From NCBI GenBank assembly GCA_030704665.1, contig JAUYID010000009.1, positions 458,460 through 522,459 on the forward strand: a stretch of 64,000 bases of DNA, read 5' to 3'. The notes under the pieces are model-generated. The model was not told where the DNA came from, did not search any database, and saw nothing but the letters and a program-made list of their open reading frames with translations. The stretch is from a bacterium. GTDB taxonomy: Bacteria > Patescibacteriota > Microgenomatia > Woykebacterales > RBG-16-39-9b. The first letter of the stretch is position 1; each line of letters opens with the position of its first letter. Both the position numbers and the translations under genes were made by a program. Positions 12,235 through 61,380 of this stretch are shown one piece after another.

Positions 12235-12559
12235 AAAAATATTTTACCTCAGAAAACGGAGAGGCGCACGAAACTGAGATACTGTGGTTGATTTCCTGTA
12301 CCAAAGCTCGTGCGCCGTTTTCCCTTCTTCCACATTTTTACCCTATCGAGTGGTCCAGGGAAGCTAGCCTTTCTGCAAGGGGCTTTCAGTCTCGACAAAG
12401 CAGTTGATCTCTTTGATGCTGAGGGGGTTTCGCACCAGTCGTTTAGGCGGCGGGTACTAGTTCGGGTGCTCGGTGCGAAACCCAGAAGGAACCTCAGCGC
12501 CTTAATTTTAGAACTGCTTGTTCGGCAAATGCAAGATAGTATTTGGGGTGGGGGGGGGA

Positions 12560-12720
12560 AACAGAGAAAGCGCACAGTGAGAAGTCCATCCAGCGTTTAG
12601 CTTGACAGCACTGTGCGCTTTACTCTCTCCTAGTGGGTGCCGGGTGGTTAGTTAGCCAATCTGTAAATCAACTAACCCTGGTACTTTTCAGGGGGTGGAG
12701 TACAAGACAAAATCACCCGG
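12560..12720. other. Structured-RNA-like element: a perfect 13-bp inverted repeat and a three-way-junction-like hairpin cluster
   Basis: AAAGCGCACAGTG...CACTGTGCGCTTT. CCGGGTG encloses GGTTAGTT...AACTAACC and CCCTG...CAGGG and closes with CACCCGG. The surrounding 12250-12940 is GC-rich with no convincing ORF. Confidence 0.3.
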
Positions 12721-12929
12721 CTCTAACTTTCTTCTTGGCTCTGCGGACCATCAGACAGTGTTGATGGAAGAAGATTCAAGGAGGAGAGACGTGCGCCTCA
12801 CGCGGAGTTGCTCGCCTTTCCAGAGAACGATGGCCGTTTGAACGCGAACCATGGGGATAAGCGAACACAGAGATCAGTCCCTCTCCAAGTTTGATCTCTC
12901 ACAGAGCTTGGTTATTTTACAAATTTAAA

Positions 12930-12939
12930 CTAAATTTAG
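12930..12939. promoter_or_regulatory. Perfect 10-bp palindrome CTAAATTTAG overlapping the dinB promoter; candidate SOS/LexA-like operator
   Basis: It sits about 55 nt upstream of the dinB ATG, next to a TAATAT -10-like hexamer. Confidence 0.3.
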
Positions 12940-12996
12940 CAAGTGATACACTTTGTCCGAATTGACTCTTTCGCTCTTCTTTCGGATAATATAAAC

Positions 12997-14214
12997 ATGT
13001 CTGCTCGTAGCTACTGGATGCATCTCGATCTCGATTGTTTCTTTGCTTCGGTTGAGATCAAACTTAACCCATCGTTGAAAGGTAAACCAGTCTTGGTTGG
13101 TGGTGTCAATCCCCAAGGAAAAAGTGTTCCTCGGGGTGTCGTCGCCACTGCCTCCTATGAAGCGAGAAAATTCGGTTGCAAGAGCGGGATGCCTCTTTTC
13201 CAAGCCTTAAAACTTTGTCCGGGGGCTAGCGTTGTCGGTGGTCATTACCAAGACTATATTTCTGCTTCGCGTCAAGTCATGGCGATTGCGGCTCGTTGGG
13301 CCCCAAAAGTTGAGCAGATCGGTATTGATGAAGCTTTTCTCGACTTTTCAGGAACCGAGGTTATTTATCCAGATTTAAAGACAGTTGCCGAAAAAATCCG
13401 TGCCGAGATCAAAAAAGAAGTTGGAATCATAGCTTCAATTGGTTTGGCCGCGACCAAAGTAGTCGCCAAAGTCGCTTCAGATTACGACAAACCTGACGGC
13501 TTTACTTACGTTCCCTCTGGAACCGAAAAAACCTTTCTTTCTCCTCTAGCCGTCCGCGATTTGCCCGGAATTGGGCCCAAAACGGAGATTTATTTTCTGG
13601 GTTTGGGAGTGAAAACTCTAGGCGAAGTGGCGTCTTTACCAGCAGAAAAAATTAAAAGTTTCGATAAGGCTCTGACTGGTCTGTGGAGAGCGGCGAACGG
13701 TTTCGATAACGTTTGGTACACTCCCCGCCTGACGGCTAAGTCAGTTTCTCGTAGCGAGACTTTTTATACCGATCGAGATGACGAAAAGTTTATTTTGGCA
13801 ATGCTAAGGAAGTTAACTGAGTCAGTTGGTGAAGAGTTGCGAGCCGAAGGGTTTTCGGGGCGTTGTGTTTCAGTAACAATTCGTTATTCTGACTTCCGGT
13901 TTATTTCTCGACAGCGTGTTCTCCCCTATCCAACCAACATAACTAAAGAAATTTATGATCTGGGAGAAATACTGCTGGAAGAACTTTGGGATTCAAAAAC
14001 GCCGTTGCGTTTGGTTGGGATTGGGATTTCTCAGTTTGAAGACAAAAAGCAGCCGACACTTTTTGAGGGTCTGCGAACAAAAAGACTTGAGCTTGAAGAA
14101 AGAATTGATAGCTTAAGAAATAAATATGGTAAAGATGCGGTCGTTCCAGCTAGCCAAATGCTCCTCAAGGGAAATTCCAAAGATTTTGAAGAAATAAGTT
14201 TCAGAAGAAAATAG
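12997..14214 (+). CDS. dinB: DNA polymerase IV (Y-family translesion polymerase)
   Basis: HLDLDCFFASVE catalytic motif, SIGLAATKVVAKVASDYDKPDG, little-finger domain. Start chosen at MSARSYWMHLDLD. Confidence 0.85.
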   Translation: MSARSYWMHLDLDCFFASVEIKLNPSLKGKPVLVGGVNPQGKSVPRGVVATASYEARKFGCKSGMPLFQALKLCPGASVVGGHYQDYISASRQVMAIAARWAPKVEQIGIDEAFLDFSGTEVIYPDLKTVAEKIRAEIKKEVGIIASIGLAATKVVAKVASDYDKPDGFTYVPSGTEKTFLSPLAVRDLPGIGPKTEIYFLGLGVKTLGEVASLPAEKIKSFDKALTGLWRAANGFDNVWYTPRLTAKSVSRSETFYTDRDDEKFILAMLRKLTESVGEELRAEGFSGRCVSVTIRYSDFRFISRQRVLPYPTNITKEIYDLGEILLEELWDSKTPLRLVGIGISQFEDKKQPTLFEGLRTKRLELEERIDSLRNKYGKDAVVPASQMLLKGNSKDFEEISFRRK

Positions 14215-14217
14215 GTT

Positions 14218-15369
14218 CTAAAAACGAGAGCGGCGCGCAGGGTGATCGTCATCGAGGGCGATGTGACGGTACTCACTTACTACGCGCCGTTCCAACACAG
14301 AACTGGGGGAGCTCTGGTGTTGGTAAATTTGCCTGGCGACTGGGCGTATCCGGACGGGTGTCCAGACTGAAGAACTCTCTGGCGGAGAACGCATCAGCGC
14401 TGTACAGCTTCCCGAATCACCAGGCCCTCCCAGAGTCGCGCACGTGAGTGGCGAGCTGTAGAGGCAATTTAAACCCGCTTCAGACCGCAGCAATTGCTTG
14501 CGCTGTCCAAAGAAGGAGTGATCTCAGTCTCCCCTTTTGTACCGTGCTACTAGAGGGGATTCCGGGGGCGGTTTTGCCGACCCAATTAATTAAGGATTAC
14601 TCATTCCCAAAGTCTTGGTACACGGCCAAGACAAGCTAATAGCCAAGGTTGGGCGGGACTTAAGGGGTACCCTCCGTGCTCCAATTTTCTGAAGATCACG
14701 GACTATAACCATCCCCTCTTTCGGCCTTGGCGATTCCCCAGTACGGCGGTCAGGAGAAGTCGACGCCCGCAGTTACCGACTGCACGTTCACTAGGTAGCT
14801 CGCTTGCGCGGCACCAGCGACGAGTCGGCAGACACACAAAGGTATCAACGCGGGGCGTGGTTCGAAGCTGTCGGGACTATTACCTTTACGCGTGCAACAC
14901 GCACCGAAATGCATGGCCGCGAGGAGTTAACCCTTGAGAGGGTACCCGACTCTACGTCGTTTGAACGACGCTGCTGGACGCTACCTGCCGCCGTACTGGA
15001 TGAATCCGAGAGTTTCCCACCGAGGTGAGCTTTCCTTGCGGATGTTCGCCGCTAGGATGCCATTTAGAGGCCGGACCGACACTGCCGGATCCGTTCTGCC
15101 CCTGTTACCTCGGTGGGGTCCCGAAGGACAAACTACTCTCTAGTTTCCTAAAGAGCGGATTGTCCGTCAGGACATCTCGTTTCTCTACTTTCTAAATAGT
15201 CAAAGTACGTATGCAAATTTAAGACAAAGATTTCTTTTTGTCAATAAAGCTGCGCTATATTAGCAAAAAATGAAAATAATGTCAAGACTATAGGACGCTC
15301 GTATTTGATATCTCCTGCCGGAGATCAAATACTGCGCATCCTGCGCTCATCGATCTTGGGATTTCAAGA
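14218..15369. other. GC-rich segment of about 1.15 kb with no long ORF; candidate large structured RNA or rRNA-derived remnant
   Basis: The longest ORF is under 92 aa. Many local hairpins. Short stretches resemble conserved 23S rRNA segments (CCCCAGTACGGCGG, GTTACCGACTGCACG, ACTATAACC, CCTTTAC), but their order is scrambled and no sarcin-ricin loop is visible. Confidence 0.3.
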
Positions 15370-16533
15370 CTAAATATTCTTCTCAGTATCGGGGATGGTT
15401 AGTTTGTAGCGAATTTGTTGGTAAGCAAAGCGAATTGCGGCGTTGATCAGGTAAGTTAAAGCTAGCAAAATTAGGAAGTAAATGACCCCAAAACCAGTGA
15501 TAGCCGGAAAAGTTTTGTTGGTCATGTAGCTAAGGATGCTAGCCACGACTCCGATGGTGGTAATCGCGGTCAAAGAGGAAATTTGTTTGCCGGTACTTTT
15601 CCCTTCGAGCTCAACTAGAATTTGGATGGCGCTGGCCAAGTAATCTTTGGTCATCGCCCAGAGTTCTTTGATGTAAGCGTGAGTATCATCCAAAGTTTCA
15701 AATTTGTACTGAAAGAGAGTGGAAAGTTTTTCCTCCACCTCAAGTTTTTTGGAAATTGAGCTGCGAGTTGCAACATAAATACCCATTTGGTTGATACGGT
15801 TGTTGATCAAATTAATCGTTTTTTGGTAGCGGTCGAGTTGACCACGAATTTTCTCGACCTCAGCTCCTTTGACCACCTTGCGTTCTTTGATATCGGCAAT
15901 TTCCTCCCAGACTTTGCGGTGGATATGGAGATACTTTTCCAGCTGGTCTTTGAACTCGCGAAAGAAAATCTGCATCTCAACCAGGTCAGAGGCGGTTTCA
16001 GCTCTCTTCGCAACGATAAAGATAAATTTGTGAGTTTTGTAGACAGTCACGTCTGGTGAATCAATTTTGCTGTAAACCTCTCCAAACTGCTCTTTGTCAA
16101 TGGTAAAGCTTGCCGGTTTTGGGTCTTCAAAAGAAACTACCGTTGGATGGCTGATTTTGATGTTAGCTAGGACTTTGGGGGTAGGGGCGCCTAGGGAAAA
16201 AAGATAGCTGAGGGCGGGGTTAAAAACATTTTCAAAGTAATCCTCGAGGAGTTTTTTGCTCGCCAAAATGTCAGTTGAGGTTAGTTCCAGAATGTAAAGA
16301 CCGTCTTCATAATAGCGAACTTCAATCCCCTCCCCGCTAGTTGCTTTGACGTATTCTAAATAGCCTACTTCACGGCTGACGTGGGTCAGTTTCAAACTTT
16401 CTCGCAGTTTCTCTAGTTTTTCTTTTGGAAGCTCGGTATAGGTATGAGCATGAGCAAAAAAATTGTAAATTTCCGAGAGATGTAGTGTGGTGCGTTGGTA
16501 CCAGCCACCGTAAGTAATTTTGTAGTTGGGCAT
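15370..16533 (-). CDS. Hypothetical protein with a C-terminal two-transmembrane-helix anchor and a coiled-coil; function unknown
   Basis: Start inferred at MPNYKITYGGWY. C-terminal hydrophobic helices. Confidence 0.5.
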   Translation of the reverse strand: MPNYKITYGGWYQRTTLHLSEIYNFFAHAHTYTELPKEKLEKLRESLKLTHVSREVGYLEYVKATSGEGIEVRYYEDGLYILELTSTDILASKKLLEDYFENVFNPALSYLFSLGAPTPKVLANIKISHPTVVSFEDPKPASFTIDKEQFGEVYSKIDSPDVTVYKTHKFIFIVAKRAETASDLVEMQIFFREFKDQLEKYLHIHRKVWEEIADIKERKVVKGAEVEKIRGQLDRYQKTINLINNRINQMGIYVATRSSISKKLEVEEKLSTLFQYKFETLDDTHAYIKELWAMTKDYLASAIQILVELEGKSTGKQISSLTAITTIGVVASILSYMTNKTFPAITGFGVIYFLILLALTYLINAAIRFAYQQIRYKLTIPDTEKNI

Positions 16534-16577
16534 GCATACAAATATTGCCTGAAAGAAAAATTGAAAGCAAGGGGCTT

Positions 16578-17324: not shown

Positions 17325-17708
17325 ATGGAGTGTCAATTTGGACCAGTTGGTGTTGATTGCAAACACCGAGCTGACGCCCACATCTGCAAGTACTGTGAAC
17401 GACGCGGTTGTGGCAAGGGAGGTCATCCCCACATCATCAAAAGTAGAGGTGTGTGGGTTTGCAGCAAGGTCGACCAGATTTGTCGAGATGCTCGCAAGAC
17501 CTTCCTTCGTGAACTCACCAGGGTCAAGCCTGGAGACACGATCGTTGTCGATGGGCACAACGCTGTGGTCATGGACAAGCAGCCGGTTGAACGCGAACAC
17601 TGCTATGCCCACCACGGGACTCCTGTTCCGATGGTTCGAGTTCGTGTTCGCAGGATTCCGCGCTGGGGTTGTCCTAGATTTTCTGAACACACTTCACGGG
17701 CACGTTAG
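17325..17708 (+). CDS. Cys/His-rich small protein (10 Cys, 11 His); possible metal-binding protein
   Basis: AAGGAGGA SD 5 nt upstream. GC-rich. Two other long ORFs overlap in other frames, so the coding frame is uncertain. Confidence 0.4.
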   Translation: MECQFGPVGVDCKHRADAHICKYCERRGCGKGGHPHIIKSRGVWVCSKVDQICRDARKTFLRELTRVKPGDTIVVDGHNAVVMDKQPVEREHCYAHHGTPVPMVRVRVRRIPRWGCPRFSEHTSRAR

Positions 17709-55553: not shown

Positions 55554-56040
55554 ATTTTAGAATATCACAATCGTTTTCTAAACCACAAAAAAAGCCCTCA
55601 ATCCATCGGGACGAGGACTCCTCGCTTCTACCACCCGATTTCCCCTCACCTCAATTGGTGGGGACACTTAGTACTCTGCTCCGCCTAAAAAGGACGGACG
55701 ATTTACTTTGGGTCTTTGACGGGACCTTCCGTCGAAGCCTTGTCAACTTCGCGACTCGGGAGTGAACAGCGTCTTCTTGTTTATCCCCTTCCTCGTCTAA
55801 GCGGGACTCTCAGGAAACAAGAAATAGAACACCACTTCTCTTTCATTGTCTTTGGTTTTTTAAGTTGTTGAAAGCGATTCTACCTTGAGAAGAAAAAAGT
55901 GTCAAGAAAAGAAAATGGCCCCTTGATGGGAAGCTTACGCCTGCCCTACATAAGCTTCCCACCAAAAGGCCAAAATCAAATTGTGAACAGAGTATAGCAT
56001 AAATAGGTCTTTTTGTCAAGACTATGGGGCTAAAAAATAA
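55554..56040 (-). promoter_or_regulatory. Leader of about 490 nt upstream of pheST. It carries two tandem consensus promoters, P1 (-35 at 56014-56019, -10 at 55991-55996) and P2 (-35 at 55900-55905, -10 at 55877-55882). There is a T-box-like GGGUGGUAG motif and a terminal U-tract.
   Basis: On the minus strand: TTGACA-17-TATACT and TTGACA-17-TAGAAT. A strong GGGAAGCTTA/TAAGCTTCCC hairpin. GUUCAC, a possible Phe specifier. CUUUUUUU lies just before the pheS SD. Confidence 0.45.
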
Positions 56041-60510: not shown

Positions 60511-60624
60511 AGAAACTCTTTCAGACGGTTACCGTTTGTGCTGCAGTTGATAACCGTAAGTGGGGGTATTCTAACAAATAAGTGAAGAGGTGTAAATTGA
60601 GAGGTCTAGGGGCTCGAGTTTAGC

Positions 60625-60661
60625 CGAAATATATCTCGAGCCCCAAAGTCTATCTCTAGCT
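60625..60661. other. Strong 10-bp-stem hairpin (GGGGCTCGAG...CTCGAGCCCC) at the clpP-proximal edge of the GC-rich islet
   Basis: Perfect inverted repeat with a 16-nt loop. No adjacent U-tract. Confidence 0.4.
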
Positions 60662-60684
60662 GTCTTCCGTGGTTCGGCCCTTAT

Positions 60685-60855
60685 CTACTGGGTGAGTTGA
60701 GTTCGCTGCAGCGCTCTTTCTTGCCCCCTACGTGCTTTTTCAAGTCCGGCACGGCGCTGCGTAGAGAGCTTCGGGTCCTTTAGCTTCTCCTTGATATCGG
60801 CGAGGTTAATCACCTGGGCAATGAGCTTGCTACCAGTACCTTCACCGAAGTCCAT
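60685..60855 (-). CDS. Mini-ORF C, 56 aa, hypothetical. Its ATG overlaps the stop of ORF B (TGATG).
   Basis: Translational coupling. GC-rich islet. Confidence 0.3.
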   Translation of the reverse strand: MDFGEGTGSKLIAQVINLADIKEKLKDPKLSTQRRAGLEKARRGQERALQRTQLTQ

Positions 60856-61067
60856 CAGAGCCCCCCTTCGATGGTGTGATCACCCATCAGCTCGTCGCGG
60901 AGTTCTCCGAAGACCTCCTCGATGAGCTTCTCACATTCGGGATGGGAGGCCTTCATGCTGACATAGCGCTCCCAGAGCAGCCTGATCGTTTGCTTGAAAC
61001 GACCGAGTTCCTCCTTAATCTCCTCACGAGTGAGGTTTGAAGAAGTCTGCGTTGCTACCTCACTCAT
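60855..61067 (-). CDS. Mini-ORF B, 70 aa, acidic hypothetical protein
   Basis: A GAAGGAG SD lies inside the 3' end of ORF A. Confidence 0.4.
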   Translation of the reverse strand: MSEVATQTSSNLTREEIKEELGRFKQTIRLLWERYVSMKASHPECEKLIEEVFGELRDELMGDHTIEGGL

Positions 61068-61072
61068 CAGCT

Positions 61073-61261
61073 CTACTCCTTCAATGCCTGACGGCTTGAG
61101 TTGAAAGCGTCATCCTCGTAGTCGCCACGAAGCTCGAGGGCAGCCTCAGCAGGATCACGCCGTGACAAGGGGTACTTCAGCTCTGGACCACAGATGTAGG
61201 TCGGCGTCCGCTCGCCCCTCGCCACTTCCCTCTTCTGCGTTGTTACGCTTGTTTGATCCAC
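61073..61261 (-). CDS. Mini-ORF A, about 62 aa, GTG start
   Basis: An AAGGAGG SD lies 5 nt before the GTG at 61261. It is the first ORF after the atypical tRNA. Confidence 0.35.
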   Translation of the reverse strand: MDQTSVTTQKREVARGERTPTYICGPELKYPLSRRDPAEAALELRGDYEDDAFNSSRQALKE

Positions 61262-61380
61262 GTCTGCCTCCTTGCTGATCGCTAGCCGGTGCTTCCCCGG
61301 ACAGAGTCTTGGCACAGTAGTGGTTGGACCATTCGGCCCCTTGAAACTTACTTACCTCAGACACTGTCGTGATTCAGTTT

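Follow-up and report, generated by a model that had tools for sequence, protein, structure and literature searches.

To our knowledge, only a handful of non-ribosomal bacterial RNAs exceed 500 nt, namely OLE, GOLLD, ROOL and HEARO, and each of them is structurally remarkable. The OLE RNA (RF01071) of the Bacillota has a length of about 610 nt and is defined by hundreds of covarying homologs. ROOL (RF03087) with about 580 nt and GOLLD (RF01998) with about 800 nt are usually found in prophages or in the neighbourhood of tRNAs. Furthermore, both form RNA-only homo-oligomeric assemblies, cages as well as multimers, as seen by cryo-EM (PMC12286853). For CPR bacteria, a literature search returned no description of a large structured RNA. 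The genomes of these organisms are minimal, with a size of about 1 Mb, and a non-coding kilobase is costly in them.

The locus described here belongs to a metagenome-assembled genome of the CPR/Patescibacteria, from which a stretch of 64 kb (the window) was analysed as a whole. On the plus strand of the window, dinB (Pfam domains IMS and IMS_C) extends from 12997 to 14214; it is followed on the minus strand by a gene at about 15370 to 16532 or 16632, whose product comprises 387–420 aa and is referred to as the 387-aa protein. The protein has no Pfam domain and carries a hydrophobic segment at its C-terminus. It is identical to the hypothetical protein Q8P13_02785 of a metagenome-assembled genome at NCBI, and its next-best relatives share at most 64 % identity; these, as well as the relatives of DinB, are proteins of Parcubacteria, Microgenomates and Woykebacteria. 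Upstream of the 387-aa gene lies a gene for an HD hydrolase of the YfbR type (yfbR); yfbR, the 387-aa gene and the candidate RNA discussed below all point in one direction.

The gap between dinB and the 387-aa gene (14215–15369) contains no ORF longer than 91 aa, and the initial annotation, which had pointed to an ORF-poor stretch of about 1.15 kb between dinB and a membrane-protein gene, was right in both coordinates and description. The GC content is 0.54–0.59 over 14200–15100 compared with 0.39–0.46 in the flanks. A core of 903 nt (14218–15120) reaches 0.571 and thereby exceeds all 900-nt windows that were sampled from the 64 kb, for which the mean is 0.460 and the sd 0.030; the core value is comparable to that of the tRNAs of the window (0.545–0.61). 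The last approximately 250 nt (15121–15369) are AT-rich (GC 0.39). This AT-rich part lies outside the GC-rich body and is occupied by promoter-like and hairpin elements.

On balance, folding predictions and promoter motifs speak for a stand-alone structured RNA gene on the minus strand, which probably runs from about 15209 (or about 15250) to about 14220 and measures about 1.0 kb. Of the readings considered below this one is best supported, because the strand-specific signals are hard to obtain from inert DNA and because the coding and known-RNA alternatives have failed. The placement of the RNA on the minus strand was absent from the initial annotation.

The strand-specific signals come from the folding statistics. 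The minimum free energy (MFE) of the minus strand is −432 kcal/mol in comparison to −352.5 ± 9.45 kcal/mol for 60 dinucleotide shuffles (best shuffle −373.6), which corresponds to a z of about −8.4, whereas the plus strand reaches only −389.9 kcal/mol. When 14218–15200 was folded and compared with 20 shuffles, z was −16.3 for the minus and −4.3 for the plus strand. Among 426 windows of 300 nt from both strands, the minus-strand windows of the region hold ranks 1, 2 and 5 for excess folding energy, with −33, −25 and −20 kcal/mol relative to shuffles as against −2.3 ± 6.0 across the 64 kb. The impression that the stretch is full of local hairpins is therefore well founded, and the excess goes far beyond chance. 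It is not explained by the GC content alone, because a GC-rich control at 60511–61380 (GC about 0.55), which contains three small ORFs, folds no better than chance (z −2.1 and −1.3).

The individual domains of the fold, the pairings and the loops show the same asymmetry. Relative to shuffles, 10 of the 11 predicted domains fold more strongly on the minus than on the plus strand, and in nine of them z lies between −3 and −6.8. Mismatches of the 1x1 A·C type occur once in the minus fold and ten times in the plus fold; hence the G·U wobbles of the shared helices lie on the minus strand at a ratio of about 10 to 1, which points to selection at the RNA level on this strand and not to DNA palindromes. 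In addition, four GNRA or UUCG tetraloops (GAAA, GCAA twice, UUCG) are present in the minus fold, compared with 0.35 ± 0.57 in shuffles (maximum 2) and a single one in the plus fold.

Just upstream of the GC-rich body and directed into it, two promoter-like elements are arranged in tandem on the minus strand. The first, P1 (15257–15285), consists of TTGACA-N17-TAATAT with an extended −10 TG and has its predicted start near 15250; the second, P2 (15216–15244), reads TTGACA-N17-TAAATT with a predicted start near 15209. The same consensus precedes many genes as well as the tRNA-Trp/Leu operon in this window, and TTGACA-N17 can thus be regarded as a working promoter type here. The two elements would act as tandem sigma-70-type consensus promoters and drive an RNA from about 15209 or 15250. 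The predicted RNA body of about 990 nt (14220–15209, minus strand) takes its 5′ end from P2 and its 3′ end from a U-tract.

All structural features are MFE predictions from a single sequence. In the model the RNA would form a series of about eleven stable domains, each of them a stem-loop or branched. According to MFE and pair probabilities, the 5′ strand of a closing helix, AGAAACGAGA (15175–15184, minus), is predicted to pair with its 3′ strand, UCUCGUUUUU (14220–14229, minus), which includes the terminal U5 tract (14220–14224). This 10-bp helix, predicted only, would bring the 5′ end and the 3′ U-tract together and thus close the whole molecule.

Within the closing helix, and again on the minus strand throughout, the predicted domains follow each other from the 5′ to the 3′ end. 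Domain 1 (15118–15173) is a hairpin of 56 nt with a GAAA tetraloop at 15144–15147 (z −6.8 on the minus, −3.8 on the plus strand), and domain 2 (15016–15117) is a three-way junction of 102 nt with a closing helix of 11 bp (z −5.0). Domain 3 (14732–15006), which is multi-branched and comprises 275 nt, has z values of −5.7 on the minus and −2.8 on the plus strand; its closing helix of about 22 bp includes a perfect 12-nt inverted repeat (14738–14749/14988–14999), and its loops contain UUCG (14905–14908) and GCAA (14804–14807). Domain 4 (14642–14731, 90 nt) is the weakest part of the model, with a z of only −1.5. It is followed by hairpin 5 (14612–14632) with the loop CCGUGUA (14619–14625) and by the hairpin pair 6 (14525–14583) with the loop GCACGG (14542–14547), both predicted folds. 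Six nucleotides of these two loops are complementary, CCGUGU (14625–14620) to GCACGG (14547–14542), and may form a kissing pair; as an equal match is found in 4.8 % of loop shuffles, this candidate contact is a hint only and marginally unusual (p about 0.05).

The 3′ part of the predicted molecule consists of hairpin 7 (14474–14516; GCAA tetraloop at 14494–14497; z −3.1 on the minus, −1.1 on the plus strand), hairpin 8 (14426–14464; z −3.1), the branched domain 9 of 95 nt (14331–14425; z −3.6 on the minus, −0.3 on the plus strand), hairpin 10 with a CCCCC loop (14292–14323; z −4.8) and hairpin 11, a GC-rich terminal hairpin of 59 nt (14231–14289; z −5.6). The last of these is not a canonical intrinsic terminator, since the U5 comes 6 nt after it. 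Several helices are long and nearly perfect, a feature less expected of old, ornate RNAs and one that counts against an RNA gene.

The orientation of the predicted transcript and its two ends also bear on another explanation, according to which the stretch is no independent gene. It would instead belong to the 387-aa gene, as a long structured 3′ UTR or as a product of read-through, or it would be a convergent antisense transcript interfering with dinB; its structure would serve only stability or termination. Such a transcript would run in the direction of the 387-aa gene and yfbR. Directly past the stop codon of the 387-aa gene, outside the GC-rich body, an inverted repeat (I2; 15302–15333, minus) forms a hairpin which may mark the transcript end of this gene; no U-tract follows the hairpins 3′ of the stop codon, as would suit a read-through. 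At the other side, the predicted 3′ end of the RNA is found six bases past the stop codon of dinB and lacks a canonical terminator, so that transcripts running on would be antisense to dinB. Moreover, in the equivalent gap of one relative (L017) a TTGACA-17-TAATAT promoter is likewise aimed at dinB, although it is a positional analogue only. However, two strong promoters separate the 387-aa gene from the GC-rich body, and the 387-aa genes found in other genomes (L001, L002, L011 and L012) are placed elsewhere and have no such RNA downstream. The gaps of the relatives share no sequence with the candidate, and a dense, closed structure of 1 kb far exceeds what a UTR or an interfering transcript needs. 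Taken together, a UTR or antisense origin appears unlikely.

Another alternative considered was that the stretch derives from a known RNA, as a fragment or as a divergent member of its family, be it rRNA, a group I or group II intron, RNase P RNA, tmRNA, OLE, GOLLD, ROOL or HEARO/omega RNA. Only the size and an earlier impression of short 23S-like words speak for it. All 4227 models of Rfam 15 were applied to the entire 64-kb window at the gathering score and detected four tRNAs and nothing else. With permissive filters, a search of 14000–15600 gave only four chance matches (E 3.8–9.6), and a search of the whole window gave nothing at 14215–15369. The same permissive mode recovered a divergent T-box upstream of pheS (55604–55855, minus strand; 52 bits at a gathering score of 93; E 1e-10); the sensitivity is thus adequate and the negative result at the candidate meaningful. 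This applies to the large non-coding RNAs OLE, GOLLD, ROOL (permissive cmscan, E ≤ 10) and HEARO/IscB omega RNA (RF02033), to the group II intron (RF00029 and the D1–D4 families) and the group I intron (RF00028) at E ≤ 10, and to the models of RNase P RNA, tmRNA, SRP RNA and 6S RNA, none of which matched. In addition, ARAGORN found neither a tRNA nor a tmRNA in the candidate region.

A remnant of rRNA was rejected as well. The LSU and SSU models were silent at E ≤ 10, and so was a blastn search of all complete E. coli genomes, whose rRNA operons were part of the comparison. The degraded rRNA fragment suspected in the initial annotation thus found no backing. The words of 9–15 nt that had been taken as similar to 23S rRNA are not meaningful; one of them, CCCCAGTACGGCGG, is simply an arm of the inverted repeat in the closing helix of domain 3. 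No similarity to an RT or a homing endonuclease was detected in any frame of the stretch, and no such gene, nor one for IscB, TnpB or a protein of the IS605 family, is adjacent. Tandem repeats, CRISPR-like or TIGR arrays and attC-like sites (RYYYAAC...GTTRRRY) are absent from the stretch. As far as covariance models see, a derivation from a known RNA is refuted and essentially excluded; we regard it as exceedingly improbable. From the earlier proposal of a non-coding RNA in the size class of OLE, GOLLD, ROOL and HEARO, the size and the structure are retained, in agreement with the strand-specific fold, the tandem promoters and the non-coding character, while membership in one of these families is not (no Rfam match at E ≤ 10). 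Being longer than 500 nt, non-coding, over-stable and folded on one strand, and belonging to no Rfam family, the element is placed as a candidate under the general kind of large structured bacterial non-coding RNAs.

The non-coding character is based on several lines of evidence, which also concern the possibility of a decayed, frameshifted protein gene, perhaps an orphan without surviving relatives. Stop-free stretches of up to 115 codons would be compatible with such a gene, and lineage-specific orphan genes do occur in the neighbouring slots of the relatives. However, seven ORF fragments gave no Pfam match at E ≤ 10. A concatenation of 998 aa, assembled from the stop-free stretches of at least 50 codons in the frames of both strands, was compared with 5.8 billion proteins and found nothing at E ≤ 10; this search was also able to catch spurious ORFs annotated elsewhere on loci homologous to the RNA. 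When the 115-codon frame was searched exhaustively with HMMER against 1.84 billion representatives, one match only (P0121) was returned, a repetitive artefact. Long genes of this genome use all three stop codons, and no full-length frame opens upon reassignment of TGA, TAG or TAA. The period-3 spectral power amounts to 0.64 compared with a median of 4.6 and falls into the bottom 1.6 % of windows. Furthermore, the hypothetical translations are rich in Arg, as is typical of GC-rich non-coding sequence. A protein-coding pseudogene was rejected on the grounds that no frame retains protein similarity and that codon periodicity is missing, and the decayed acquired gene mentioned in the initial annotation shares this fate. 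The possibility is largely refuted and essentially excluded, and a decayed gene is very unlikely.

The genomic surroundings were compared with those of related organisms. The only other copy of the element, on a Logan contig (L013), represents the same genome, with 100 % identity over 12.6 kb, and contributes no variation. Four syntenic relatives, whose DinB proteins are about 73–76 % identical, lack the element, and it may therefore be young or consist of acquired DNA. The gene order common to the relatives is RRM, DUF2196, DUF192, dinB, yfbR, M23 peptidase, Xer recombinase, SHMT, histidine kinase and gyrA. Little or nothing separates yfbR from dinB in L014, L016 and L017, and in L014 the two overlap. 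As yfbR directly follows dinB in the relatives, the window carries a lineage-specific insert of 2.36 kb, which comprises the 387-aa gene and the RNA. The gaps downstream of dinB in the relatives have a length of 414–654 nt, are slightly GC-enriched and fold with z values of −1.8 to −4.4; blastn, nhmmer and Smith-Waterman alignment against shuffles detected no similarity of these gaps to the candidate or to each other. In each relative the slots between the conserved blocks hold unrelated, lineage-specific content, including orphan genes.

Searches for a homolog of the candidate were negative as well. Neither nhmmer nor blastn found one in 17 fetched loci or, as a paralog, in the rest of the window, and blastn against phages and plasmids gave no match. 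Degenerate 24-nt seeds were taken from stop-free pseudo-translations of the RNA, six per scan, and detect only fairly close relatives. With 12 different seeds each, the genome contig collection (searched without the source genome) and the metagenome contig collection gave chance seed matches only, none of which was confirmed. In viral contigs, 23 distinct 8-residue (24-nt) degenerate seeds used in four scans revealed no homolog, and one exact 17-mer had 8 chance matches without extended similarity.

The main rival to an RNA gene is selfish or recently acquired DNA, since the element is an orphan and restricted to its lineage. The stretch would then be what is left, for example, of a GC-rich element of mobile or foreign nature; it would have no function for the cell, and its fold would be inherited or incidental. 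The 2.36-kb insert at a site where yfbR and dinB otherwise adjoin, the lack of a homolog in any collection searched, the GC content far from that of the genome and the length and perfection of some helices are all in line with such an origin, as are the slots of the relatives with their unrelated lineage-specific content. Nevertheless, neither terminal inverted nor direct repeats were found at the borders of the insert, tandem repeats and attC-like sites are missing, and no frame contains a remnant of a transposase or integrase. G·U pairs and tetraloops favour the minus strand, which argues for selection at the RNA level, and two native-looking consensus promoters precede the stretch. For these reasons acquired DNA without function is given a minor, though not a negligible, probability. 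If it is inert acquired DNA after all, the locus is a warning that extreme folding scores in a GC-rich gap free of ORFs need not reflect a function.

If the stretch is, as we think probable, a stand-alone RNA gene, the product would work as a folded, architectural molecule, either as a scaffold for proteins or as a particle that assembles itself, comparable to OLE, ROOL and GOLLD. Given a structured RNA gene, such a function is conceivable by analogy, being weakly suggested by size and fold density. In our opinion the RNA is not a base-pairing regulator, a leader or an mRNA, because a dense and closed structure of 1 kb exceeds the needs of these roles. Conceivably, it is the first representative of a class of ornate RNAs of about 1 kb that is new and confined to a barely sampled CPR lineage, and it would be kept in a genome of about 0.94 Mb because the fold itself acts. 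If true, few structured RNAs of bacteria outside the ribosome would be larger, and it would be, as far as the literature searched shows, the first reported from the CPR. A real and expressed RNA of this kind would provide a new large fold and a starting point for detecting its relatives in metagenomes of the CPR.

Among the known systems, a fragment of 23S rRNA has in common with the candidate the GC content, which is high relative to the genome, and the density of helices, but the candidate has no match to the LSU or SSU models and the words cited as similar are arms of local helices. The HEARO/IscB omega RNA is likewise a large structured RNA of a GC-rich, ORF-free gap; in contrast to it, the candidate is two to three times longer, has no model match and no gene of the IscB, TnpB or IS605 type nearby. 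Unlike OLE, the candidate originates from the CPR, is about 60 % longer and has neither a model match nor known covarying homologs. Both are large, GC-enriched, highly structured, stand-alone and of the same size class, and the candidate, too, adjoins a membrane-protein gene of unknown function. OLE has a conserved neighbour of the oapA type; the 387-aa gene lacks the RNA in all other genomes looked at, so that no conserved partnership of the two is apparent. ROOL and GOLLD differ from the candidate, which matches neither model, in their context: about 45 kb lie between the candidate and the nearest tRNA (tRNAs at 59.8–62.8 kb), and there is no prophage, phage or viral match. An oligomerisation of the candidate RNA would, by analogy with these two, be pure conjecture. 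With ROOL and GOLLD the candidate shares a similar length and, as predicted, many stem-loop domains in one closed fold, and its GNRA tetraloops and candidate loop-loop contacts are elements of the types which such assemblies use.

The slots separating the conserved syntenic blocks around dinB and yfbR (14215-16577 in the window) differ in content from genome to genome among the window and its syntenic relatives L014, L016 and L017, and these contents, which are orphan genes, hydrolases, a PD-(D/E)XK protein or non-coding gaps, are mutually unrelated. This variation suggests that the surroundings of dinB and yfbR are a local gene-turnover hotspot. In L017 (NCBI GCA_025449635.1, contig JANWIZ010000036.1) dinB and yfbR are separated by a gap of 414 nt with a GC content of 0.49 versus 0.41 for the locus. 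The gap harbors a minus-strand element (L017 11180-11537) consisting of a TTGACA-17-TAATAT promoter directed toward dinB and long hairpins extending over ~330 nt (fold z-score against shuffled sequences −3.8). No sequence similarity was found between this gap and the GC-rich candidate RNA gene of the window, and the element could represent a small RNA of its own that is unrelated but occupies the equivalent place.

Directly upstream of dinB, 708 nt (12235-12942) form a second ORF-poor stretch. Its GC content is 0.49, its period-3 power ~1.0 and its fold z-score ~−3.6 on the plus and ~−4.0 on the minus strand; it also contains the G-run GGGGTGGGGGGGGG. Neither an Rfam match at E ≤ 10 nor a strong promoter was found in this stretch, and the equivalent slot of L014 is occupied by an unrelated 372-aa gene. 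The dinB gene itself is preceded by a promoter-like site on the plus strand (TTGACT-17-GATAAT, 12962-12999) ending 6 nt before the ATG (12997). A Shine-Dalgarno sequence is absent ahead of this ATG, and the gene may be transcribed as a leaderless mRNA.

A 127-aa Cys-rich ORF (17325-17708, plus strand, GC content 0.55) occupies a further lineage-specific slot, this one between yfbR and an M23 peptidase gene. The ORF has a strong ribosome-binding site (AAGGAGG) and matches no Pfam family. The surrounding 732 nt gave the second most striking fold encountered (z-score −7.8, plus strand), and both strands of the region carry overlapping ORFs of comparable length.

A 12-nt direct repeat, ATGTCAAGACTA (15279-15290) and ATTTCAAGACTA (15361-15372), with a spacing of 82 nt, flanks both hairpins which follow the gene for the 387-aa membrane protein. 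The −35 box of P1, the promoter-like site upstream of the candidate RNA gene, lies on the minus strand within the first copy; the second copy overlaps the 387-aa gene's stop codon.

A minus-strand stretch (60511-61380, GC content ~0.55) downstream of a tRNA-Trp/tRNA-Leu pair was used as the negative control matched for GC content; it contains three tandem, partly overlapping small ORFs (80, 70 and 56 aa), and no significant RNA fold was found in it.

A T-box leader was detected in the rplT-pheS intergenic region (55604-55855, minus strand) in the permissive Rfam mode (52.4 bits, E = 1e-10). The rplT gene is followed by a long terminator hairpin, and tandem TTGACA promoters are located at 56019-55991 and 55905-55877. 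The leader is absent from the default Rfam scan because its score is far below the gathering score of 93 for the T-box family; known RNA families appear to score under the Rfam threshold in this CPR genome.
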